Positions 292-64,000 of a stretch of DNA of 64,000 bases are shown here, piece by piece. Location of the stretch: the IMG/VR virus record IMGVR_UViG_3300042691_031577, positions 32,001 to 96,000 of that record. The stretch is one strand, 5' to 3'. The notes beneath the pieces are model-generated. The model was not told the origin of the DNA. It did not search any database and worked only from the letters and a program-made list of their open reading frames with translations. Position 1 is the first letter of the stretch. Every line of letters begins with the position of its first letter. Origin of the DNA: a virus. The position numbers and the translations under genes were made by a program.

Positions 292-1007
292 ATATTTTCG
301 TCTGTACCTATAAATATATTACCTCCTACTTGGTATCTTGCTGGTGCTGCTGTTGGTGATGTGCCTGCACCTATAACAGCTGCAGCTACAAAAGCATCAG
401 GAGTAAAAGAACTATTAGCACCATTAAATGAACTAGTAAATGCCCATCTTGTAGTACCACTATCAAATGCAAATAACTCACCTACATTTTGAGTACCTTG
501 TTGAACTACAATACCACCATCACCAGTTGTATTTGAACCAGAGGCTAATAATACAAATCTATCTGCTACTTCTAAGTTAGTAGTGTTTTGAAATGATGCT
601 GTACCTTGTACTGTTAAATTATTTGTAATAACAGCATTACCTGTGACTGTTAATAAAGTACCATCAAATGTTAAATTAGATTCACCATTAATAGTACCAC
701 CACCAGTTGCTGTTATTATTCTATTATCAACATTATTAGTAATAGCATTTGTTAAATTATTAACAGATGAAGCATATGAAGCTGAAGTACTATTTAAAGC
801 ATATGATGCACTAGTAGCATTTAAGGCATATGATGCTGAGGTACTATTTAGAGCATATGATGCACTAGTAGCATTTAGAGCGTAGGATGAACTTAAACCT
901 TGAGAAGCATATGATGCTGTACCTGATAAGTTTCCTAAAAATGATGAAGTAACTGATAATAATTCCGCATTACTACCTGATACTATGACTTTTTTCCATG
1001 TTGCCAT
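276..1007 (-). CDS. Tail fibre / virion structural protein with SYALN(A/S)TSA repeats
   Basis: Ser/Thr/Gly-rich; tandem 9-aa repeats; late promoter motif at 1030-1038. Confidence 0.65.
   Translation of the reverse strand: MATWKKVIVSGSNAELLSVTSSFLGNLSGTASYASQGLSSSYALNATSASYALNSTSASYALNATSASYALNSTSASYASSVNNLTNAITNNVDNRIITATGGGTINGESNLTFDGTLLTVTGNAVITNNLTVQGTASFQNTTNLEVADRFVLLASGSNTTGDGGIVVQQGTQNVGELFAFDSGTTRWAFTSSFNGANSSFTPDAFVAAAVIGAGTSPTAAPARYQVGGNIFIGTDENIWIYS
772..888. repeat. Tandem 27-bp coding repeat (about 4 units; SYALNATSA / SYALNSTSA alternate)
   Basis: gcatatga recurs every 27 nt within the fibre gene. Confidence 0.85.
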
Positions 1008-1040
1008 TATATATTACTTTAATGTTTGTTATAAATATGT

Positions 1041-1424
1041 TTAATTTTCTAATCCTACATAAAAAGATGAAGAAGTAAAGTATATGCTTCCAGCTACTGT
1101 TGAACCTGTTAATGGAGCTGATTGAGTGGCAAAATATACTATACTTTCACTAACTTTAAATGTTGTTTGACCTGTATTATTTTTAATTAAGAATATGTTA
1201 TTAGTAATAGTAGTAGTGTCTGAAGTTATAGATATTAATTCAGCACTAGCTGACTTAACTAAAAATAAATTACCAATGGGACTTACACTAGCAGTTACAC
1301 TACCTGATGTTATTTCATTTCCTTTTACTGTTAAATTAGTTAAACCACTACCATCGCCAAAAAATGACCCACTAAATGAACCGGATAACGGATATTGTAT
1401 TTGTTTACTGGTAATTAATGCCAT
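1041..1424 (-). CDS. Small virion/fibre-like structural protein
   Basis: GSFSGSFFGDGSGLTNL motif typical of phage fibre proteins. Confidence 0.55.
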   Translation of the reverse strand: MALITSKQIQYPLSGSFSGSFFGDGSGLTNLTVKGNEITSGSVTASVSPIGNLFLVKSASAELISITSDTTTITNNIFLIKNNTGQTTFKVSESIVYFATQSAPLTGSTVAGSIYFTSSSFYVGLEN

Positions 1425-2692
1425 TATGTGAATTTTCCTATTGCTACTACTTCGTCTGTTAAATTTAATGAATAACCTATAGATGATGTATTGAAAGTTG
1501 TCACTACATTTCCTCCACTTTCTAATAAAGATACAGCAGAAGAAGGAACGTATTGGCCGTTAATATAAAACACAAAGTTACTTACTGTTGTAGCTGGTAA
1601 ACTTGATCCTGCTGGTGGTTGTAATATAGATGCACTAGTAAATGTAGCGATATTAGGAACTGTTACAGAACCTGCTATTTTAGTAATATTGGTATTAATA
1701 TATTCTAAATCAGCATTACTTGCTCCTGTGCTTGTTACATTAGTTACATTAATTCCTCCTCCTATAAATGAAGTTGCACCTGTAGCATTTTTAGCTGCTG
1801 GTTTATTTGCAAATTTCATTTCATCTATATTTGTTGTTGTTCCTGCTCCGTCTATTACTTCTAAATTAAAAACCACTTGAGATGTTGTATAAAATTTACT
1901 ACGAGCTACTGCTAAATCTTTATTTACTGTATCAGGAATGATATATCCATTTAAAACAAGATTAAAAGTAGAGCGAGCCGCTCTATCTTCTCCTTGTTCT
2001 AATAAAGTAGTTGTAGTAAATGAATCTATTCTGGCTTTGAATTTCCATCTGTTTGGATCACCCCAATATGAATCAGAAGCAAATTCAATTGCTTCTACTA
2101 ACTTATTGTTTTGTTCAACATAATCTGTAAATACAACACATGAATATGTTAAAGTAACATAATCAGGTACAGCACTCATGTAATACTGTTCTGAGGGTAT
2201 TCTATTATTTATAACAGAGAATCTATCATATGCATTTCTGATATTGTACTTTGTACCTATAACTTGATATAAATGAGCTCTATTGCCGTCTAATTTATTT
2301 CCTAATGTTCTATTTTTTTCAACATTTTCACGTTTGAACATTATAAGAGGAGCTAATCCTTTTCCGTTAGCATCACGATAGAAACCATCTGCTTGAACTG
2401 ATTTCCAACGTTCTGGAGAGCCATAAATTACAGGAACTGTTATTTGTTGTCCGTTTTGTATTACAGATGGTTTTATAACACTTTCAAAATAATATAATAC
2501 AGCATAATCTAAATCTTCTAGTCCTATACTTACGTCTTTAACAGTGTCTCCTTTAAACGAAATATCTTTACCTCTATTTTTAGAAAATACAGTATTACTA
2601 ACAGGTTTTCCTTGATCTTTTAAATAAGGAATAACTTGTTCTTGACTAATTTCAGCTGCATTTTTAGGTATAGGTTTAAGAGATCTAGCCAT
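1424..2692 (-). CDS. Tail sheath stabiliser / tail terminator, T4 gp15-like, with C-terminal extension
   Basis: VPVIYGSPERW and VPDYVTLTY motifs; synteny with gp13/gp14-like genes. Confidence 0.65.
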   Translation of the reverse strand: MARSLKPIPKNAAEISQEQVIPYLKDQGKPVSNTVFSKNRGKDISFKGDTVKDVSIGLEDLDYAVLYYFESVIKPSVIQNGQQITVPVIYGSPERWKSVQADGFYRDANGKGLAPLIMFKRENVEKNRTLGNKLDGNRAHLYQVIGTKYNIRNAYDRFSVINNRIPSEQYYMSAVPDYVTLTYSCVVFTDYVEQNNKLVEAIEFASDSYWGDPNRWKFKARIDSFTTTTLLEQGEDRAARSTFNLVLNGYIIPDTVNKDLAVARSKFYTTSQVVFNLEVIDGAGTTTNIDEMKFANKPAAKNATGATSFIGGGINVTNVTSTGASNADLEYINTNITKIAGSVTVPNIATFTSASILQPPAGSSLPATTVSNFVFYINGQYVPSSAVSLLESGGNVVTTFNTSSIGYSLNLTDEVVAIGKFT

Positions 2693-3054
2693 TACTGTTG
2701 TTTTCTTTGTAATTCTAACATTTTATCTAATGCTAATATCATTTGGGCGGCTTTATATAAATAACTATTAGCGTCTTTAGCTACTTTAGCTATATCTTCA
2801 TTAGTAGAATATTTAAATGCCTGTACTTCTCTTCTGTATTTTAAAACATTTCTTCGTATTTCATCAAATTTAGGAAGTGCTTCAAACTCTTGTGTATAAG
2901 CGCCGGTTTCAGGATCCATAGAAGTTTTTATACTTTTATATCCTCTTTCAAAAGCCTCATCACCTTTTTTAGGTTTAAAAGCAGCTACTTTTTCACCACT
3001 TTTCCCAGTTACAGGGATTTCAGCTTCATTTAATATATCTAATAATTTAATCAT
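2692..3054 (-). CDS. Putative internal head protein with MIKLLDILNE leader (start reassigned from 3135)
   Basis: ATATTTA-N5-ATG immediately before 3054; shared leader motif. Confidence 0.6.
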   Translation of the reverse strand: MIKLLDILNEAEIPVTGKSGEKVAAFKPKKGDEAFERGYKSIKTSMDPETGAYTQEFEALPKFDEIRRNVLKYRREVQAFKYSTNEDIAKVAKDANSYLYKAAQMILALDKMLELQRKQQ

Positions 3055-30270: not shown

Positions 30271-30644
30271 TTTAAAAAGCGTAATTTATAGATGGTTGAA
30301 TTAATAAGAGCAACAACTTCATCAATTTGATTTTGAATATATGAATCTTGGCAAAGCATTGTTCTACTTTTTTCAATATAAGAACAAAGTACAGTAAAAT
30401 ACATAATGATACCTTCACAGCTTTGATATTCTTGTAAAGCAACATTTGTATACCCAGTAACGATACCGTATTTACCTTGATATGATTCTACTATACCGTC
30501 AGTTATACCTACAATTTCATCATAATATTCATTTAATGCTTTATGAGCAGCAAATGAAGGTGTTTGTAGATGAAATACATGAGCCTGCGTACGAGACGCC
30601 ATTAACGTAGAAACAAATTGACCCATTAATGCGTTATGTTCCAT
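30267..30644 (-). CDS. Ferritin/Dps-like four-helix protein (DUF5856-like)
   Basis: [20 protein letters not shown]......D...E.YQG, YKLRFL. Confidence 0.7.
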
Positions 30645-31355: not shown

Positions 31356-33950
31356 TTAACTATTTTTTATTTCTTCAATATGTTTTTTCAATTCGTCAAC
31401 TCTATCAGGATTACGTTCGATATATTCATTGAATATATAATTGCGTATTTCTGTTAAATTACGTTGTCTTAATGCGGCTACCAAATTAGCAGGACTATCT
31501 AATTGAAATGCACCGTTTTGTGTTAATAACCAGTGGCTATTTCCTGGTTGGGCTACTATAGATGCTACTAAATTGCCTGATTCTAATTGGATACCATATA
31601 TGGCACTAGGGCCTACTATTCGTACATAATCAACGTGACCCAAATTACCTAATAGATTATCGCGGCGTGATACTCCTCTATCTGTATTTAAATTTCCTCT
31701 AGTAGAATCACCGAAGAATTTAGCACGGATATTTACAGGTAATTGGTTAAATGAATTTAATAAATTACTATTTTCTAAAGTAGTTTGTAAATCATCACTT
31801 ATATTACCTTCAATTGGTCTATTAGCACCACCTGCTGGTCTTCCTCTTCTACCGGTTCCTGCTGCTGGTACTCGTTCACCTGCTCCTAATTGAGCTGGTG
31901 TTGGGCGAGGAGTAGTTGTTCTAGGAGCTCTAGCTTGTAATACTCTTCCTGTTTTTTCTGATATTCTAAAACTTTCTGCAGGGTTAGCTGTGTTTACAAT
32001 GTATATTTTGTTATCTACTACTTTTAATCTATATGTAGAATCTTCTGTGTATGGTAAATCAGGGATACTAGCTAATGCTAGTTTATCTTTATATCCTACT
32101 TGCCATTGGTTTTGTGAAAATATACTTCTAGTAGTATTGTTGTCCAATTTTATATTATTATCATTTAAAAATTGTTTATATGCTAAACCTACTTCAGGAC
32201 TATAAGAAAATCTTATTTCTTCCATTTTATCTGTTTCATCCGAATATCTAAAAGCTTTAAACTTAAAAGAAGAAGGAATATCAAACACGTATAAGTTTCC
32301 ATCATACGTAGATATACCTTCTACTCCTCTCATCAATTTACTTTTAGGAACATTAGATAATATCTTAGAAGAAATTTCACTATTAAATAAAGGTGATTTA
32401 TTAAAAATAGAAGTTATTAAATTATTTTGAACTTCTTCATTTGATGCTGCTTCTTCAACAAATTTATTTTTAGCAGCTATTACATTTTCATTACTAGTAT
32501 CAGCAGGAATAATACTGTTTCCTTCAACTTGGTATATTTTAAGTCTATTTCCTGAGGTATCAAAAAGTACTTCAGTATCTCCTATTTTTATTATTTTCTT
32601 TGATATATCGTTAGATGTTCTAGCTTTATCAATAATTCCGCTTATTGCGGTATTATCTAAATTGTTTGCCTGTATAGCACGTGCTAGTGAATCTAAAGGT
32701 ATATCACTTATGTTTGGGTAATCAAATAAATATTTTTGTGTTCTTTTAGATAATTTAACATCCTTATATGTTTCTTCTTCAGTAATAACGTCAATGTATG
32801 TTCCTGTTCTATCGTATGATATATTTACTATAGTTCTACCATCTTCAGTTACATAAAGATTATAATTACTATCAGTAGGTACTTTACCAGTTTTAACTAA
32901 AGCTTTAGCAAAATCAAAGTTAAACTCTTTGTTCAAGATATTTTCTCCAGTAACATTTATAGGATGACCGGGAGCATTAACTTTTGCTAATAATGATTTT
33001 TGGTATTCTGGTTTAAATATTTCTATCTGTTTTAATAAATTATCAAAACCAAGAATCCACGGATTTTGAAATATCCATTCTGCTAATTTATCATATTTAG
33101 GAAGAACTTTAACAATAAATGAGTCAGTAGATAAATCCCTAAATAATTCATTGCTTGAATATCTACTTGCTATATAAGAACCTCTTACAGATATGTAAAG
33201 TTTTTTCTCTTCAAAATCTAAATCATTAGCCCATTCTCTAAAACTAATACCATTTTTAAATCTTTTTTCTACATTTATTTCTGCTTGACTTATAGGAATA
33301 TGCTTAAGAATACTTTTTACATTATCTATAGAATTTAAATAAGGTACTTCATCAAGTAATTTATCAAAATCCATTTCTTTAGATTCATGAGGACTATTTT
33401 TACGATTAGTATAAACATATCGTCCATTATTTCTTGCTTGAATAGCAACGAAACTAAGAGGATCACTATCTGGGAGATTGGTATTTCTAACTAAGTAAAA
33501 GTTAGGATATCCTCTTCCGGGGTCAAATCGATAATTTCCAAATGATCCTCTAGTAATACACCATCTTTCTCCAGCACCATATCTTACACATTTTCCTTCT
33601 ACATCACCGTTATATATAACAATACCATCTTCATTATACACCATATCTGGAGTAGGTACTATAGTAACTTTTTCTTTTTCAAAGCCTGGTTTAGATGAAA
33701 CTATTTTTAGTAGTTGTTTTAATGAGTACTTACTTAAATCTTTTTCAGAGACGTTTGGGTCTTGCTTAAATTTAGTATCAAAAACAGTAATAGCCTTTTT
33801 AATTTCATCATCAGAAATAGTTATATTAAAGTCTTCTGCTTCTTCCTTAAATTTCTGGGTTAATGCTTGTACCACTTTTTCACTCATTGCCTCAGTTAGA
33901 AAAGGCCAATTAAGTACTACATGTTCTATTAATATGTGTATATTATTCAT
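31356..33950 (-). CDS. Large hypothetical protein (864 aa) with YG.G.RWCIT motif and RRGRP AT-hook
   Basis: Long ORF; FLTE near N-terminus, NLTE near C-terminus. Confidence 0.65.
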   Translation of the reverse strand: MNNIHILIEHVVLNWPFLTEAMSEKVVQALTQKFKEEAEDFNITISDDEIKKAITVFDTKFKQDPNVSEKDLSKYSLKQLLKIVSSKPGFEKEKVTIVPTPDMVYNEDGIVIYNGDVEGKCVRYGAGERWCITRGSFGNYRFDPGRGYPNFYLVRNTNLPDSDPLSFVAIQARNNGRYVYTNRKNSPHESKEMDFDKLLDEVPYLNSIDNVKSILKHIPISQAEINVEKRFKNGISFREWANDLDFEEKKLYISVRGSYIASRYSSNELFRDLSTDSFIVKVLPKYDKLAEWIFQNPWILGFDNLLKQIEIFKPEYQKSLLAKVNAPGHPINVTGENILNKEFNFDFAKALVKTGKVPTDSNYNLYVTEDGRTIVNISYDRTGTYIDVITEEETYKDVKLSKRTQKYLFDYPNISDIPLDSLARAIQANNLDNTAISGIIDKARTSNDISKKIIKIGDTEVLFDTSGNRLKIYQVEGNSIIPADTSNENVIAAKNKFVEEAASNEEVQNNLITSIFNKSPLFNSEISSKILSNVPKSKLMRGVEGISTYDGNLYVFDIPSSFKFKAFRYSDETDKMEEIRFSYSPEVGLAYKQFLNDNNIKLDNNTTRSIFSQNQWQVGYKDKLALASIPDLPYTEDSTYRLKVVDNKIYIVNTANPAESFRISEKTGRVLQARAPRTTTPRPTPAQLGAGERVPAAGTGRRGRPAGGANRPIEGNISDDLQTTLENSNLLNSFNQLPVNIRAKFFGDSTRGNLNTDRGVSRRDNLLGNLGHVDYVRIVGPSAIYGIQLESGNLVASIVAQPGNSHWLLTQNGAFQLDSPANLVAALRQRNLTEIRNYIFNEYIERNPDRVDELKKHIEEIKNS

Positions 33951-58334: not shown

Positions 58335-58345
58335 ATTAATAAATA

Positions 58346-58385
58346 TTTGGAGACTTAAAGAAAAAATTTTATCTTTACATCATAA
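58346..58385 (+). promoter_or_regulatory. Early-type promoter for the tRNA-like RNA
   Basis: TTTG-N20-TATCTTTA-CATCATAA, same pattern as minus-strand early promoters. Confidence 0.65.
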
Positions 58386-58395
58386 TAAATAAAAT

Positions 58396-58513
58396 AGTCA
58401 GGTGGCGAAAGGATCGGGATATCCCGGTCGTGGTAGACGCAGGTCGTAGGTAGCACCGTTTGCAAACAGCCTTAACGTGGTAAACATTACAGGTTCGAAT
58501 CCTGTCCTGACTA
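58396..58513 (+). ncRNA. tRNA-like RNA (Leu-type frame, hairpin inserted in D-loop, no canonical anticodon arm)
   Basis: Acceptor AGTCAGG/CCTGACT-A, T-arm ACAGG-TTCGAAT-CCTGT, D-stem GCG...GGTAGACGC. Confidence 0.75.
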
Positions 58514-58882
58514 CAATATAAGTATATACTTTTGTCGACACAAAAAGATCGTTTAAAAGAGTTCTTTGACATCTTGCAAAATTTCCCAAAAGGGGTTAGT
58601 CCGAAAATGCGAACGCAAAAATTGGAGATATACGTATATACTGTCGATGGCGAAGAGGTGTTTGCGAGTTGTGAATACGTCACATTAAATTTTGTACCAA
58701 CATCATCCCGCGCATGGACCGCGGCTAGCATGGGGACAGATCGCTATTAGATCGCCGGCGGGCCGCTATCGCCTGCACTTCCCTAGATCTCTTTTGCCCG
58801 GCGGGTGATTTTTTATCGAGCGCGCTAGCTCGCGTAAATATTGCTTTATACTAGCACACCTGCGATCATATGCGATAGAGAC

Positions 58883-58916
58883 AAAAGAGCGCATGCTTTT
58901 ATGTTCGCATGCGCTC
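58883..58916 (-). terminator. Intrinsic terminator ending the early region
   Basis: GAGCGCATGC-N10-GCATGCGCTC-TTTT. Confidence 0.75.
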
Positions 58917-58940
58917 AATCGTTTAAACCGTATGTTCTTA

Positions 58941-59336
58941 TTATCCGAATATAATGTCTTGATAGAATACGGTCTGCAGCATTACATCAGCTGTTTCCGC
59001 ATCATCATTTTCAGTAATCATATTCGTCAGATGTTCTATTGGTGTCTGAGCTACTCTCTCATGAACGTCCGATAGATCAATTGTACTATTCATTTCACCA
59101 TCACCTTCTTCATCTATTATAGTTAATGATTTACCTAAACGAAGTACCTCTAATAAAACATCCTCGTAACAGATTCCTTGATCGGGATTCTTTGATTTGA
59201 GGCTCTGCTTAGCGGCTTGATAATCTTGCTCATCTGTTTCTAAGATGAGACCGTAGCCTGAAATGTAAGACAATCCGTTACATAATGCATTGTGGAACAT
59301 TTCTTCTGATTCTTGTGGTGTTAAAATTATTTTCAT
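58941..59336 (-). CDS. Acidic early protein (start reassigned from 59423)
   Basis: MKIILTPQ; promoter at 59351-59390; ends DAETADVMLQTVFYQDIIFG. Confidence 0.7.
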   Translation of the reverse strand: MKIILTPQESEEMFHNALCNGLSYISGYGLILETDEQDYQAAKQSLKSKNPDQGICYEDVLLEVLRLGKSLTIIDEEGDGEMNSTIDLSDVHERVAQTPIEHLTNMITENDDAETADVMLQTVFYQDIIFG

Positions 59337-59510
59337 TTGTTTGTTAATTATTATGAGATAAAGATAGTGGACGAGCTTTGCCCGTCCACTTTTCCTTAAA
59401 ACAACTAAACAATAATCAAACAAACAATCAATTATTAAACATTATGAAATTGAATTTCGGTGTGATAAATGCTACTATAGCTAAGTTTTCCGGATCCGCT
59501 ATTATTTTTA

Positions 59511-59726: not shown

Positions 59727-59785
59727 ATCGTTTTGTTTTTAATTGTGATGTAAAGGTAAGTGGCGAGCTTTGACTCGCCAAACAA

Positions 59786-59974
59786 TTAGTACATTTGATT
59801 TTTACAAAAGCGAGTAGTTCGGAATTTTGATTTACTCGTTGAACAAGAAGACATTACCGCAATACCTAGTATAAGTAAAACCCATACTACAAATAAAGCT
59901 TTAGCTTTGAATTGATGATTTTTTGTTACTTCGAAATCACCGTTCTCTAATTTTGTTACGTTAAAATCTGACAT
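59786..59974 (-). CDS. Small membrane protein / possible lipoprotein
   Basis: TM segment ending MSSC; own promoter. Confidence 0.65.
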   Translation of the reverse strand: MSDFNVTKLENGDFEVTKNHQFKAKALFVVWVLLILGIAVMSSCSTSKSKFRTTRFCKNQMY

Positions 59975-60036
59975 AATATTTTTGTTTTAATTGTGATATA
60001 AATGTAATAAAAAAGGCTCTGACGAGCCTTAAATAA

Positions 60037-60216
60037 TTAACCTTGAATCATTATTCCGTTTTCAAATATAACCCAAGCATAATTTGAATAATGATCATTG
60101 GGTTCCATTAACTCTAACTCAGTTAGAACATCATTTAATTCTTCTCTAGTACATGTAGTAGTTAAATTAGAATAAATGTCACTTGGATTTGGGAAAATTA
60201 GATAAGTGTTTTTCAT
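60037..60216 (-). CDS. 59-aa early protein (absent from ORF track)
   Basis: MKNTYLIFPNPSDIY...WVIFENGIMIQG; promoter at 60226. Confidence 0.7.
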   Translation of the reverse strand: MKNTYLIFPNPSDIYSNLTTTCTREELNDVLTELELMEPNDHYSNYAWVIFENGIMIQG

Positions 60217-60273
60217 ATCGTTATTAATTGTGATATAAAAATAAATGGGTAGTCTTGACTACCCAAATATTAA

Positions 60274-60507
60274 TTAATAATCTAAATTAAATGTAATGAC
60301 TTTAGGTCCTATATACTTACCTTCATCATCGAAGATATCATCATCGTCTTCATCAAAATTATCACAACATAAGTCATCGTCTAAATCAATGTCTTCTTCT
60401 TGTAATTCTAATTTGACTGTGTAATCAGTAGGATCAGTGTTTTTTAAACATATTACTGTTTCTGGATCTTGTTGAGATAGTATCTCAATTAATTCTTTTA
60501 CTTTCAT
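60274..60507 (-). CDS. Acidic early protein
   Basis: MKVKELIEILSQQDPE; Asp-rich; promoter at 60522. Confidence 0.7.
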   Translation of the reverse strand: MKVKELIEILSQQDPETVICLKNTDPTDYTVKLELQEEDIDLDDDLCCDNFDEDDDDIFDDEGKYIGPKVITFNLDY

Positions 60508-60565
60508 TGTTTTATTTATTTAATTGTGATGTAAATATAAACAACGAATTTTGACTAAACAACAA

Positions 60566-60727
60566 TTATTTCAATCGATATTGAAGTGTATCATTTACAT
60601 TGTACTTAGCTGTGCTATAAACAGTGTATGTTAAGGTATCATTCGCTGATTTAGCCTCATACTGGAAACTACCATTGCTGTACCCACAGCATGATATTAT
60701 GATTATTTTTGCTATTAATATTTTCAT
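60566..60727 (-). CDS. 53-aa early protein (absent from ORF track)
   Basis: MKILIAKIIIISCCGYSNGSF...; TATCTTTA-N4-ATG. Confidence 0.55.
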   Translation of the reverse strand: MKILIAKIIIISCCGYSNGSFQYEAKSANDTLTYTVYSTAKYNVNDTLQYRLK

Positions 60728-60739
60728 GATATAAAGATA

Positions 60740-60928
60740 TTATCCTTTACCTTCTTCATAGATATCATAACTAGGATCATTATCATTTTCTTCTAGTTCT
60801 TGATCTAGAGACAAAAAATCACCTTTGAGTGCTTTATCTAAAGCTTCTTCTTCATTGTTTGCTTCAACAACATAAGTGTAAATAGACGTTATAGGTCTAA
60901 TTTCATTTACAATAAATCTTTTTGACAT
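60740..60928 (-). CDS. Small early protein (VEA..EEEAL..A motif)
   Basis: Own promoter at 60942. Confidence 0.7.
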   Translation of the reverse strand: MSKRFIVNEIRPITSIYTYVVEANNEEEALDKALKGDFLSLDQELEENDNDPSYDIYEEGKG

Positions 60929-60982
60929 AGTATTTTTATTTAATTGTGATGTAAAAATAACAAAAAAATCTTGACAAACAAC

Positions 60983-61010
60983 AAAAAAAGCGCCTCATTT
61001 CTGAGACGCT
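60983..61010 (-). terminator. Intrinsic terminator
   Basis: AGCGTCTCA-GAAA-TGAGGCGCT-T-run. Confidence 0.75.
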
Positions 61011-61037
61011 CTGTCTAATAAAAAACAACTATAACAA

Positions 61038-61433
61038 TCAAGAAACAACTTCTGCTTTAACTACCTTAGGCCTACCCGGTTTGATCTGAATACCGGCTGC
61101 TAGCTTCTCAGCGCGCGCCTGCATTCTTTGTTGACGGGCTGATCCCTCTACAGCTGGCCTACCTCTGCGCAACAAACCTTCTTCACGCAAACGAGTTTTT
61201 TCAGCAATACGAATCTGTCTAGGTGAATTTGGATCCACCGGTCTACCTTTTTTCTTGGTAACACCCTCGTTTGTGATGTTGATGACAACATTCTCAGTTT
61301 GGGGTTCCACCTCTTGTTTGCCTGCGATTGCAGCTTCGATTTCGGCTTTTTTCATTCCGGTAATGTCAATACCTAATGATTTTGCTTCTGCTTTCATTGC
61401 GTTGAATAACGCTAATCCGTTTTGATTTTTCAT
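61038..61433 (-). CDS. Triple AT-hook-like (GRP) DNA-binding protein
   Basis: KKGRP, RRGRP, PGRP; paralogue of 62772..63035. Confidence 0.7.
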   Translation of the reverse strand: MKNQNGLALFNAMKAEAKSLGIDITGMKKAEIEAAIAGKQEVEPQTENVVINITNEGVTKKKGRPVDPNSPRQIRIAEKTRLREEGLLRRGRPAVEGSARQQRMQARAEKLAAGIQIKPGRPKVVKAEVVS

Positions 61434-61474
61434 AACCTTTATTTTTTTATTAATTGTGATTTAAATGTACAAAA

Positions 61475-61651
61475 TTAGTTTTGACCATCAAGTTCTTTTC
61501 GCTCAGCAACTAGATACTCGATTTGATCAACAGGCATAGTCATGATCAATTGTCTTAACATTTGATCTTCCATCCCTACTTCTCTGATGATGTTTTCCAT
61601 TGTTTCACCATCTACTTCTTTTAATGCGTTGATAATTTCTTGTGTGTTCAT
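61475..61651 (-). CDS. 58-aa early protein (absent from ORF track)
   Basis: MNTQEIINALKEVDGETMENIIREVGMEDQMLRQL...; promoter at 61663. Confidence 0.7.
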   Translation of the reverse strand: MNTQEIINALKEVDGETMENIIREVGMEDQMLRQLIMTMPVDQIEYLVAERKELDGQN

Positions 61652-61702
61652 AATCGTTTTTATTTATGATATAAAGATAATACAAATAACTGTGCCTGAC
61701 AC

Positions 61703-61727
61703 AAAAAAAGCGCTCATAGAGCGCTTT
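61703..61727 (-). terminator. Intrinsic terminator
   Basis: AAAGCGCTC-TAT-GAGCGCTTT-TTTT. Confidence 0.75.
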
Positions 61728-61730
61728 AAT

Positions 61731-62144
61731 TTAAATTACTTCGTGCCATCCGTGAACGTTCCAATCTTTTTCTGTTTGACGATTTTCACTGAATTGAGTT
61801 AGATCATCTACTAGATAAAGACAACTGTCGCCACTCACGTAGATGTAGGCTTTGTCTTTAGGTACGGAAAAATCACTATCGATGTGCAAAACGCAATACA
61901 TATCTTTTTTGATTTTGTATTCTTCTCCGAATATCTCTTTACCTATCTTCTTGAGCAATGATTTGAATTCTTGATTGTCTTTTAAAAATTGTTCCCATTG
62001 TTTGCCTATACAATCATAACGATTATGCTCGTAATTTAATGCAGGCAAATTCTCAATTTTGATTAATTCAGTAAATGATAATTTACTTTTTCCGTGACCT
62101 AAAAAGGCCTTAGCAGCAGTGCTGCTGTTGATTGCTGTTGTCAT
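61731..62144 (-). CDS. Hypothetical early protein
   Basis: 137 aa; promoter at 62162. Confidence 0.7.
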   Translation of the reverse strand: MTTAINSSTAAKAFLGHGKSKLSFTELIKIENLPALNYEHNRYDCIGKQWEQFLKDNQEFKSLLKKIGKEIFGEEYKIKKDMYCVLHIDSDFSVPKDKAYIYVSGDSCLYLVDDLTQFSENRQTEKDWNVHGWHEVI

Positions 62145-62185
62145 AATTCAAAGAACTTATTAATTGTGATGTAAATATAATAAAA

Positions 62186-62389
62186 TTACTTTGATCTACC
62201 AATATTTCTGAAGCTGCTTCGTTGTTTAAAAAATTTACTGTCGGACAAAGGAGCCCTCTTTGGAGCTGGAGCCCCAGGCCCTCCAGACCATCCTTCCCTC
62301 AGCTTCCCTCTTCTACACGCCGGACAAGGATCCCCAGGATCGTACGATAAAAATTGCTTAGAGCATTTATTACACTTAGTTCTCACCAT
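62186..62389 (-). CDS. Small Zn-ribbon protein with basic tail
   Basis: CNKC...CPAC. Confidence 0.55.
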   Translation of the reverse strand: MVRTKCNKCSKQFLSYDPGDPCPACRRGKLREGWSGGPGAPAPKRAPLSDSKFFKQRSSFRNIGRSK

Positions 62390-62399
62390 AATACATAAT

Positions 62400-62424
62400 A
62401 AAAATGGCGCTCAGATAAGCGCCA
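62400..62424 (-). terminator. Intrinsic terminator
   Basis: TGGCGCT-N6-AGCGCCA-TTTTT. Confidence 0.7.
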
Positions 62425-62432
62425 AAACCGTA

Positions 62433-62669
62433 CTAATAATCATCAAATAGATCATCATCCTCATCTACATCGTCCCATACACCTTCTTCGGCGTCCGTCT
62501 CTAATTCATCGATCTCTTCTAATTCAGCAATCATGCTATTTACTTGCTGACCCATGTATTCTAAGTCAATGTTGGTGATTACGGTATTAGATTCCATCGC
62601 TTCATCTAATATGTTATTGATTTCCTCTTCTGCTTTACGCAGGTGTCTTAATATTTTTTCCTTATTCAT
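62433..62669 (-). CDS. Highly acidic small protein
   Basis: C-terminus EEIDELETDAEEGVWDDVDEDDDLFDDY. Confidence 0.7.
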   Translation of the reverse strand: MNKEKILRHLRKAEEEINNILDEAMESNTVITNIDLEYMGQQVNSMIAELEEIDELETDAEEGVWDDVDEDDDLFDDY

Positions 62670-62717
62670 GGTACAAAATTTTAGATAAATATAATAAAAA
62701 GGAATAAAAAAACAAAG

Positions 62718-62751
62718 AAAAAACCGCCTGCAGGCAAAAAGTCTACAGGCG
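62718..62751 (-). terminator. Intrinsic terminator
   Basis: CGCCTGTAGAC-TTTTT-GCCTGCAGGCG-GTTTTTT. Confidence 0.7.
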
Positions 62752-62771
62752 ATTTAGGTAAAAAACCGTTA

Positions 62772-63035
62772 CTAAGCAGCAACGGTTTCGGTTTGTTTTT
62801 TCGGACGTCCGGGACCTACTTTCTCACCGTTAGCAATACGCGCTGCGCGATCAGCTAATTTTTGCTGGCGTTTGCTTGTAGTTGATGCTGGACGACCTCT
62901 TTTAATTTGATCACCATTAGCGATTCGCTCTGCGCGAGCAGCTAATACTTGTTGACGCTTTGAACCTTCAACTGTTGGACGACCTTTACGTTTTGATTCT
63001 GTTGCAGTAGCAACTGTTGTGTTTTCTGTACTCAT
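62772..63035 (-). CDS. Triple AT-hook-like (GRP) DNA-binding protein
   Basis: RKGRP, KRGRP, PGRP separated by repeated SKRQQ..A.RA.RIANG helices. Confidence 0.72.
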   Translation of the reverse strand: MSTENTTVATATESKRKGRPTVEGSKRQQVLAARAERIANGDQIKRGRPASTTSKRQQKLADRAARIANGEKVGPGRPKKQTETVAA

Positions 63036-63424
63036 AACCTTTATTATTTATTTTTTAAATTTAACGATGTAAATATACGACTTGAGTTTTGCCTTCCAAC
63101 ATTTTTTGTTGCAAAAAATTCGTAGTAAAAAGAAATTGGCTACAAGATACAAACAAAAGCTTTGCCAAGCACAAAGATAGCCTGCACAAAAGTGCTAGGT
63201 TTTCTAAAAATTTGTTCGTACATTGGTAATCATTTTCTGGATTACTACAGTTGCTAAATTGTTTGTTGGTGATTATTGTCTGAACCTACCACAGTTTACA
63301 TATTTGTTTGTTCGTACTGACTATAACCGTTGGCGGTGCTACAAAGGGCTGTGCTACTAGGTTGAGTAACTCACGGGCTACTTAGACGAATTCATCGTTT
63401 GAACAACAATAAATATACGAGAAC

Positions 63425-63453
63425 AAAAAAAGACAACCATTACAGTTGTCTTT
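63425..63453 (-). terminator. Intrinsic terminator
   Basis: AAAGACAAC-TGTAATG-GTTGTCTTT-TTTT. Confidence 0.75.
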
Positions 63454-63483
63454 CCTTAACTAAATTTGCGCGTTTGCTTTGCG

Positions 63484-63747
63484 TTATCTGTGCGGCTTAT
63501 ATTCCTTCGCCATCCTATCCGCTCCTAATCCTTCATACTTAAGTAATGCGTTAGCAATATACATTTGAAAACGTTGAATTGTTTTACATTCATTAATTGC
63601 TTTTAAAATTGACTGTTTGTCTTTGTCGTTGATGTTTTTTGACTGAACAAATTCGATTGTGTTTTGCTTTGCAAAATTCAGATCGGCTGTGTTGAATACT
63701 ACTTCTGAAATCTGTTCAAAAATAGACTTGATTTGTACTTTTGACAT
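63484..63747 (-). CDS. Hypothetical early protein
   Basis: 87 aa; promoter at about 63760-63800. Confidence 0.7.
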   Translation of the reverse strand: MSKVQIKSIFEQISEVVFNTADLNFAKQNTIEFVQSKNINDKDKQSILKAINECKTIQRFQMYIANALLKYEGLGADRMAKEYKPHR

Positions 63748-64000
63748 GTTGTTTGTTGTTTATGATGTAAATGTAGGCAAAAAATCTTGCCAAAACAACA
63801 AAAAAGAACAAAAAGAACGTAAAAAATTGGTACAAAATGCGTGAAAAGTATATCTGGATATATGGTCGAGTTGTAAGATGGGTGTTGGTGTGTACAATTT
63901 TCTCGATCTGCACCAATTCATCACCACCAATCACCACAACTCATTCCACCCATCACCCTAATCTTATTTTTCGAGCGCCCGAAACTCTCTTTTCAATTTC

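Follow-up and report, generated by a model that had tools for sequence, protein, structure and literature searches.

Stable tRNA-like RNAs of phages T4 and T5 have been known for decades, and no function was ever assigned to them. Phage T5 carries RNA1 and RNA2 (NC_005859, positions 30501-30644 and 32959-33083), which are annotated as 'tRNA-like stable RNA with unknown functions' and lie amid tRNA genes. RNA1 is built from an acceptor stem, a 3-bp D stem with the D-loop sequence GAAUUGGUAGA, about 80 nt replacing the anticodon arm, and a T-arm; RNA2 is characterised by the T-arm core CAGG-TTCGAAT-CCTG and by one more T-arm-like hairpin in its interior. In phage T4, the tRNA cluster includes the stable RNA rnaC (species 1 RNA, 139 nt; NC_000866, 70908-71046) with a canonical T-arm (CCGGG-TTCGAAT-CCCGG), an acceptor-like 3' strand and a large structured interior. 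Here we describe a 118-nt gene of this type in an uncultured lake phage, located at positions 58396 to 58513 on the plus strand of a 64,000-nt stretch of DNA (positions 32,001 to 96,000 of IMG/VR record IMGVR_UViG_3300042691_031577; hereafter, the window). The record is a 110-kb phage contig (G000; 66% complete, 31% G+C), and window positions equal its genome positions minus 32000. Our analyses indicate that the locus is probably a gene for a non-decoding, tRNA-shaped small RNA on a frame derived from a class II tRNA-Leu, in which the insert (hereafter, the cargo) would be the working part.

The T5 RNAs and T4 rnaC are the closest known RNAs to this element. Like it, the two T5 RNAs (125-144 nt) are phage-encoded and tRNA-like; RNA1 has the same D-loop sequence and RNA2 the same T-arm core, and the additional T-arm-like hairpin of RNA2 resembles hairpins in some cargos of the family to which the 118-nt element belongs. 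Acceptor sequences and cargos differ, however, and only the D-loop/T-arm consensus is common to both. Moreover, T5 represents two or three such RNAs in one coliphage, compared with one frame in at least 119 uncultured phage contigs with at least 148 cargo classes. T4 rnaC, despite its similar T-arm, 3' strand and interior, lacks a Leu-type D-arm, has two U.U mismatches in its acceptor, shows no sequence similarity to the element and is a single gene. YrlA/Y RNAs, which are associated with Ro60/Rsr, and tmRNA resemble the element as non-decoding RNAs in which a tRNA-like acceptor/T-arm module is joined to another domain, but the 118-nt element has no Rfam match to them and no G3.U70 pair. Bacterial class II tRNA-Leu and the element have in common a 7-bp acceptor, U8, a 3-bp D stem with Leu-type loop, the T-arm, the A discriminator and a helix before the T-arm; unlike tRNA-Leu, the element has no 5-bp/7-nt anticodon arm, no U33 and an A-U pair at 1-72. 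The design rule of the phage family is also that of an engineered tRNA scaffold (the Ponchon and Dardel design), in which the acceptor, T- and D-arms are kept for recognition by E. coli factors and the anticodon stem-loop is replaced by a protected RNA insert (PMC3753655). The scaffold is man-made and has one insertion site, whereas the phage family also uses the D-loop, and its cargo replaces both the anticodon and the variable region. Searches of the locus against 50,697 phage records with megablast and blastn returned no match, and we found no description of a family with one frame and many cargos in the literature; it is absent both from a survey published in 2023 that covers 10,006 candidate viral RNAs and from a review on non-canonical tRNAs that appeared in 2020.

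The tRNA-like frame put forward in the original prediction (7-bp acceptor, A discriminator, T-arm, Leu-type D-arm, 118 nt from the acceptor 5' end to the discriminator) can be read directly in the DNA. The 5' acceptor strand AGUCAGG (58396-58402) pairs at all seven positions with CCUGACU (58506-58512), which is followed by the discriminator A (58513) and a C (58514); pair 1-72 is A-U and pair 3-70 is U-A. U8 and G9 lead into the Leu-type D-arm (58403-58440), whose 3-bp stem is formed by GCG (58405-58407) and CGC (58438-58440), with GGTAGA, including the D-loop GG (58432-58433), directly before the closing strand. The D-loop also holds the GC-rich insert hairpin GATCGGGA/TCCCGGTC (58412-58429) that had been noted earlier and that is present both in the sequence and in the minimum-free-energy (MFE) and centroid folds; since its formal loop has only 2 nt, it is effectively a hairpin of 7 bp, including one G.U, that closes the 4-nt loop AUAU. 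At the anticodon-arm position lies a 17-nt block, AGGUCGUAGGUAGCACC (58441-58457), for which RNAalifold predicts a bulged hairpin with the 5-nt loop AGGUA. It is followed, at the place of the class II variable arm, by the cargo helix GUUUGC/GUAAAC (58458-58463/58480-58485) around a conserved 16-nt loop (58464-58479), and the T-arm ACAGG-UUCGAAU-CCUGU (58489-58505) completes the frame. In an alignment of 11 sequences the layout is thus D-arm, short invariant hairpin, 6-bp helix with a loop of 16-18 nt, 3 nt and T-arm. The palindrome GTTTGCAAAC (58458-58467), to which attention had been drawn, is present but not conserved, and its first half pairs with GTAAAC at 58480-58485. The element is preceded by T at 58395 (U at -1), and C 58514 is followed by AA, in agreement with the noted absence of a complete encoded CCA.

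The lack of a decoding arm was borne out by default ARAGORN and by Rfam. No 5-bp anticodon stem with a 7-nt loop, U33 and purine 37 is present at 58441-58488, and the alternative anticodon arms proposed by ARAGORN are without U33. With default settings, ARAGORN made no tRNA call for the element or anywhere else in the window. Likewise, no Rfam family reached its gathering threshold in the window; the tRNA model RF00005 scored 16.8 bits against a cut-off of 29 and covered only 58442-58513. The canonical features that the element does have are the 7-bp acceptor, a T-arm with a loop of the UUCRANN type, and a D-arm with GG and about 20 additional nucleotides in its loop. A tmRNA was found neither by ARAGORN (-m) nor by Rfam, and the element has no G3.U70. 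There was also no Rfam match to Y RNA or YrlA, and TROVE/Ro60 (PF05731) was not found in the contig (66% complete). Folding of the single sequence was not significant (z = -1.53; 18 of 200 shuffles fold as well), so that structural support for the element is comparative.

Comparative evidence came from the cargo class of the 118-nt element. No orthologue of its cargo was present among the first 119 loci of the family, and an exact cargo 21-mer had no match in viral contigs. Three orthologues were retrieved with the motif AGGTCGYAGGTAG, which is common to another member, when anchored to the T-loop; further ones were obtained from viral and metagenome contigs with the 17-mer alone, giving 11 distinct sequences including the element itself. 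Most matches to the 17-mer had no tRNA-like scaffold around them and looked by eye like coding DNA, and these were discarded. In the resulting alignment, all 293 of the 293 base-pair cells scored form standard pairs, and 11 pairs have changed on both sides: three of seven in the acceptor, four of five in the T stem and four of six in the cargo helix 58458-58463/58480-58485. None of 500 column shuffles reached the observed value, controls with slid partners gave 0-3 pairs, and RNAalifold independently predicted the same structure, including the cargo helix. The cargo helix and the other conserved blocks were not imposed by the search patterns. The 17-nt block (58441-58457) is identical in 11 of 11 sequences, but 13-17 nt of the block were imposed by the search patterns; because it never varies, no covariation is possible within it. 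The discriminator varies within the class, being G in L156 and L195 and U in L150. The central insert is, on these comparisons, a conserved module and not decayed sequence. The proposed selection on the acceptor/elbow half is supported by the compensatory changes in the acceptor and T stems, and the predicted behaviour of homologues is likewise seen, with the two stems covarying while the D-loop insert varies, being present only in the 118-nt element.

None of the 10 orthologues in its cargo class carries the D-loop hairpin, L230 with the nearest cargo included, and no similar hairpin was found elsewhere in the family. An insert of some kind is present at the same D-loop site in 7 of 185 members, that is, in the 118-nt element and six others. 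Across the members compared, the D-loop thus appears to be a second, rarely used display site. Among the other inserts at this site, a motif, GTACAAAGAGTAAT(A/G)GTATGTGC, is common to the L126 161-nt and L028 160-nt elements.

The 118-nt element is one of six in its genome whose acceptors agree in sequence and which also have A as the discriminator and a canonical T-arm; their interiors are unrelated (69, 83, 107, 118, 143 and 143 nt). The five paralogues lie outside the window on the minus strand (G000 63-205 and 327-469, both 143 nt; 96113-96195, 83 nt; 98335-98441, 107 nt; 108203-108271, 69 nt), and the cargo of the 118-nt element is unrelated to any of theirs. Other paralogues also have orthologues with compensatory changes, for example CGACA/TGTCG versus CTACA/TGTAG. 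The 69-nt paralogue has a normal-looking cloverleaf, yet its 'anticodon' hairpin has a loop of only 4-6 nt. The genome additionally encodes a genuine tRNA-Glu (G000 703-775) and a tRNA-Leu(UAA) that is truncated by the contig start.

Beyond this genome, at least 119 IMG/VR viral contigs contain the exact 3' 22-mer, which comprises the 3' part of the T-arm and the 3' acceptor strand, and a single contig may have as many as six copies. When the fetched loci were scanned for the structure with the acceptor sequence left free, at least 165 elements with this acceptor were obtained. The family comprises at least 179 distinct sequences and at least 148 cargo classes, with 126 singletons among the matches listed, and element lengths are continuous from about 70 to 180 nt. 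In a collection of 185,579 species, the 22-mer was found in only 18 records of cellular genomes, all of them contigs of metagenome-assembled genomes (MAGs), about half of which were binned as Bacteroidota; it is therefore not a host tRNA sequence. The original prediction of a single tRNA with a diverged decoding half does not hold in the light of this membership in a family that combines one frame with many inserts in at least 119 viral contigs.

The acceptor, U8, G9, a Leu-type D-arm, the T-arm and the discriminator A followed by C make up the constant frame. The 118-nt element matches the family consensus in all of the acceptor, U8, T-arm with the consensus (A/G)CAGG-UUCGAAU-CCUG(U), discriminator A plus C and Leu-type D-arm (GCG ... 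GGUAGA CGC). Family-wide, U8 is present in 96% of members, positions 10-12 are mostly GCG or GUG, the T-loop is TTCGAAT in 83%, and the share of members with A as discriminator is 94% overall and 76% among the 45 that were not fixed by the search. Acceptor variants include G1.U72, U4.G69 and G5.U68 as well as the fully compensated forms GGTCAGG/CCTGACC, AGTTAGG/CCTAACT, AGTCAAG/CTTGACT and AGCCGGG/CTCGGCT. The frame thus appears to vary as an RNA helix does, via G.U intermediates and compensated forms. Default ARAGORN called 38 of the 165 family members as tRNAs, with scattered anticodons (ata, agg, cta, and two- or four-base anticodons). The 'variable-arm' spacing gave a weak signal, with a gap of 2 nt in 26% of members versus 9% of shuffles and a gap of at most 3 nt in 59% versus 51%.

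Some cargo modules appear themselves to be tRNA pieces. In 5 of 148 cargo classes there is an additional hairpin of the T-arm type, with 4 bp, a closing G-C pair and a TTCRANN loop, compared with 0.05 expected from shuffles. By eye, similar hairpins can be seen in L035, L026, L042, L086, L092, L028, L155 and L076, in the last two of these inside D-loop inserts, and T5 RNA2 has one as well. Sub-modules recur in otherwise different elements (the 161-nt element of L126, the 160-nt element of L028, and elements of the L104, L155 and L147 type), and the motif AGGTCG(C/T)AGGTAG links the cargo class of the 118-nt element to a second class of 120-198 nt. In another phage, a near-threshold match to the Rfam family 'freshwater-1' (L021:4124-4186, 70.1 bits versus a cut-off of 72) lies amid frame elements and tRNAs.

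The distribution of cargos suggests that they are exchanged. Four carriers of the cargo class of the 118-nt element (L154, L150, L151 and L156) share only 0-1 proteins locally with the source phage, and the cargo thus appears to move between phages. In contrast, L126 is a true relative of the source phage (six of seven open reading frames (ORFs) at 69-88% identity). Between the same two conserved genes, L126 carries four frame elements with other cargos and a real tRNA in a slot of 2.6 kb (412-3000), whereas the corresponding slot in the window (58335-58940, 606 bp) holds the single 118-nt element. This comparison points to the slot as a hot spot of gain and loss.

We next turned to signals for transcription and processing. 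A promoter-like motif, TTTACATCATAATAAA (58374-58389, plus strand), ends 6 nt before the first base of the RNA and may act as its promoter, as judged from its recurrence. The sequence TTTACATC is 43-fold enriched in intergenic DNA, at least 10 small minus-strand genes have TTTACATCA(C/T)AAT(T/A)AA 15-25 nt ahead of their start codons, and a 15-mer of the motif is identical to a copy at genome position 98579. On the minus strand, from window position 59750 to 64000 and beyond (genome 91753-99056), the promoter-like motif recurs as GGCAAG or GTCAAA followed, after about 16 nt, by TTTACATCACAATTAA, again 15-25 nt ahead of the ATG in at least 10 small genes. A scan with the sigma-70 consensus found no plus-strand site upstream of the element, and the Bacteroidota-type TAnnTTTG is not enriched on the gene strand. 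The early-type promoter of the original prediction is therefore supported as a motif that recurs with the small minus-strand genes and not by the sigma-70 scan. Similarly, the late promoter proposed back-to-back with it does not stand as a T4-type site, TATAAATA, which lies upstream of only 2 of 119 ORFs and is not used in this genome; what is left of this proposal is the motif ATATTTAT, enriched in 20 intergenic regions. Downstream, a terminator-like hairpin with a T run (58794-58818; hairpin 58794-58808; plus strand) is a possible end of the primary transcript. RNA contigs extend from the 3' part of the element into 58632-58679, and the terminator may belong to the element. The flanks of family members appear to carry the same processing signals as the genuine tRNAs of these loci: the base at -1 is U in 82% of the family versus 71% of the tRNAs, and the discriminator is followed by C in 97% versus 93%, then by A or T.

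DNA of the element was found in freshwater metagenomes of several studies, and two metatranscriptome runs of one study (X15 and X16) also hold it, with one contig spanning 58395-58516 without mismatch. In one run, the depth of the cargo-specific bin was about 250 compared with 2-33 over neighbouring DNA, roughly 10-fold above the flanks, and a slight excess was seen in the other; neither uncovered stretches nor the depth differences in run X16 were counted as evidence. The presence in RNA libraries is a hint of expression. RNA joints that 'skip' the cargo begin and end within the shared frame, and the one with legible bridging letters carries a different cargo; because of these two features, we read them as other family members and not as splicing. 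In run X15, one RNA contig (depth about 251) has the 3' end of the frame, ...CCTGACTAC, joined to CAC and then to 58412 onward, and reads A-C-C-A-C after the discriminator, where the genome has A-C-A-A. This joint may reflect non-templated CCA that became linked to a fragment starting in the D-loop, or it may be a chimera of assembly or library preparation.

Based on these observations, we propose that the element would be transcribed from its own copy of the promoter-like motif that precedes small minus-strand genes further along the window, and that host tRNA-maturation enzymes would process it, with RNase P acting at the 5' end, followed by 3' trimming and CCA addition. The tRNA elbow fold would confer stability on the RNA. 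The cargo, comprising the 17-nt hairpin block and the 6-bp helix with its conserved 16-nt loop at the places of the anticodon and variable arms, would be the working part, and a second, copy-specific hairpin would be displayed in the D-loop. Rather than reading codons, the cargo would most likely bind a host or phage factor, either as a protein-binding module or as a decoy, in host takeover or counter-defence. We favour a factor-binding role because the loop blocks are conserved among phages with unrelated local genes, because one phage keeps six different cargos, and because close relatives differ at the slot in the manner of accessory loci. Among the options offered by the original prediction, a scaffold for a small RNA therefore fits best.

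Several results weigh against this proposal. Across the family, the folding energy of the cargos is only mildly below that of shuffles (mean z = -0.73), and no cargo had an Rfam match in either gathering or permissive scans of the window and 12 element-rich loci. The longest exact complementarity or identity of the cargo to the phage's own genome is 10-12 nt, a length that shuffles also reach. When it was considered as mimicking or complementing a conserved host RNA, the 17-nt block was found in 3 of 121 genomes versus 4 for the reversed control; the 121 genomes are from the phylum to which a Bacteroidota MAG with the scaffold 22-mer belongs. No neighbouring protein family occurs near more than 14 of about 120 loci, the top clusters being DUF932, terminase and T5orf172. 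The invariance of the 17-nt block is, as described above, partly circular, and the RNA evidence consists of assembled contigs from one study, which are blind to strand, ends, level and CCA and may include DNA. Genes for a CCA-adding enzyme, RtcB or TROVE were not found in the contig, which is 66% complete; the search for T4 Rnl1 was uninformative, as the controls were also without a match.

Four other explanations were weighed against a cargo-based function. In the first, the frame would be active through charging: the RNA would be leucylated by the host leucyl-tRNA synthetase (LeuRS) and serve as a non-decoding aminoacyl carrier or as a LeuRS sink, with the cargo tuning or targeting it. We regard this as unlikely. 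The D-loop sequence GAAUUGGUAGA is of the Leu type and is presumably identical to that of E. coli tRNA-Leu, and features relevant to LeuRS appear to be kept in the family, namely the discriminator A at the frequencies given above, U8, the D-loop GG and the T-loop. Aquifex LeuRS depends crucially on A73 and on tertiary nucleotides of the D-loop, while deletion of the anticodon stem-loop costs only 2.5-fold in affinity (PMC2377443), and this tolerance of anticodon-arm loss suits leucylation of the element. However, the 118-nt element carries about 20 extra nucleotides in the D-loop directly before GG, a region whose geometry matters to LeuRS, and members of the same cargo class have G (L156/L195) or U (L150) as discriminator. 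Furthermore, variants with U4.G69 exist in the family, and a G4-U69 pair is very damaging for Aquifex LeuRS (PMC2377443). The same frame features would be equally required just for tRNA-like folding and processing, and leucylation leaves the 148 cargo classes unexplained.

Alternatively, the frame could be a decoy or sponge for a tRNA-targeting defence nuclease, or for another tRNA-binding host protein that recognises the acceptor/elbow, with the cargo being secondary. This is quite improbable in our estimate, even though it is favoured by the near invariance of the frame sequence across many phages, by the element's own copy of a promoter-like motif common to a cluster of small minus-strand genes and by a slot that differs among relatives, which is usual for accessory or arms-race loci. 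The best-known tRNA nucleases target the anticodon loop. Since no anticodon-like loop is retained, the decoy for anticodon nucleases considered in the original prediction is not favoured. A decoy consisting of the frame only would also leave unexplained the conservation of the cargo with compensatory changes in phages with unrelated local genes, as well as the six different cargos in one phage.

Very unlikely is a decaying pseudo-tRNA or a DNA-level repeat without RNA function, such as a recombination handle or cassette boundary. The constant ends of 25-26 nt around variable middles do resemble cassette boundaries and may promote recombination, and the cargo at the slot differs between close relatives. 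In contrast, all helices are kept paired by compensatory changes in 11 sequences, which amounts to selection on RNA structure, and the frame varies via G.U intermediates that are meaningful only on the RNA strand; moreover, the flanks match tRNA processing signals, and the element is present in RNA libraries. A role of the ends in cargo exchange at the DNA level could be compatible with RNA function.

Least likely of all is an interrupted tRNA gene whose transcript would lose the D-loop hairpin together with part of the middle to become a working tRNA: ARAGORN in intron mode did report Leu(taa) with a 46-nt intron, and many artificial deletion variants were called as tRNAs, but the intron call has a poor stem and swallows the real D-arm, and the gene and the RNA contigs run colinearly, with the skipping joints attributed to other family members, so that splicing of inserts to a normal tRNA left no sign. 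The calls on deletion variants are spread over many anticodons, and in the commonest, Tyr(gta), the stem includes two G.U pairs as well as a C.C mismatch, and U33 is missing from the loop; as the calls scatter and the commonest rests on such an arm, the deletion scan is too permissive to discriminate. Orthologues that are naturally without the D-loop hairpin still received no tRNA call from ARAGORN (four of four run). Splicing of small introns from tRNAs is not known to occur in bacteria or in the phages that infect them.

In the surroundings of the element, the window contains a GC-rich, palindrome-dense stretch (58530-58940), in which a small plus-strand ORF of 48 codons is possible (ATG at 58607 to a stop at 58751-58753; no Pfam match). 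For the minus-strand gene 58941-59423, a perfect inverted repeat of 10 bp at about 58880-58910 would act as the terminator. Elsewhere in the genome, a 354-amino-acid ORF beside the tRNA island (G000 1872-2936, minus strand; L240:376-1437) was considered as TGT/DpdA-like; this assignment was rejected, as no Pfam or PHROG match was obtained with E values up to 0.01.

The type of RNA described here is already known from T4 and T5. What is new is a cargo class with a covariation-supported structure, a private D-loop hairpin, the comparison of the flanks and the evidence from RNA libraries. The family has a T4/T5-like layout and is large enough for comparative work, with one frame, at least 148 insert classes and two insertion sites. 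The question of the stable RNAs thereby becomes testable, as cargo classes can serve as bait for partners and the covarying helices as pairs for mutation and rescue. The family also shows that the principle of the engineered tRNA scaffold has a natural counterpart, and it suggests that phage accessory functions include a layer made of RNA, which gene callers and tRNA finders miss or mislabel. More tentatively, it is possible that phages of freshwater bacteria, perhaps of Bacteroidota, share a horizontally exchanged library of well over 100 RNA modules on one tRNA-Leu frame, which would be matured and possibly charged by the host and would act as aptamers or decoys against host factors or defences, with the stable RNAs of T4 and T5 as isolated members. 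If true, such a library would be an RNA counterpart of hypervariable accessory-protein islands.

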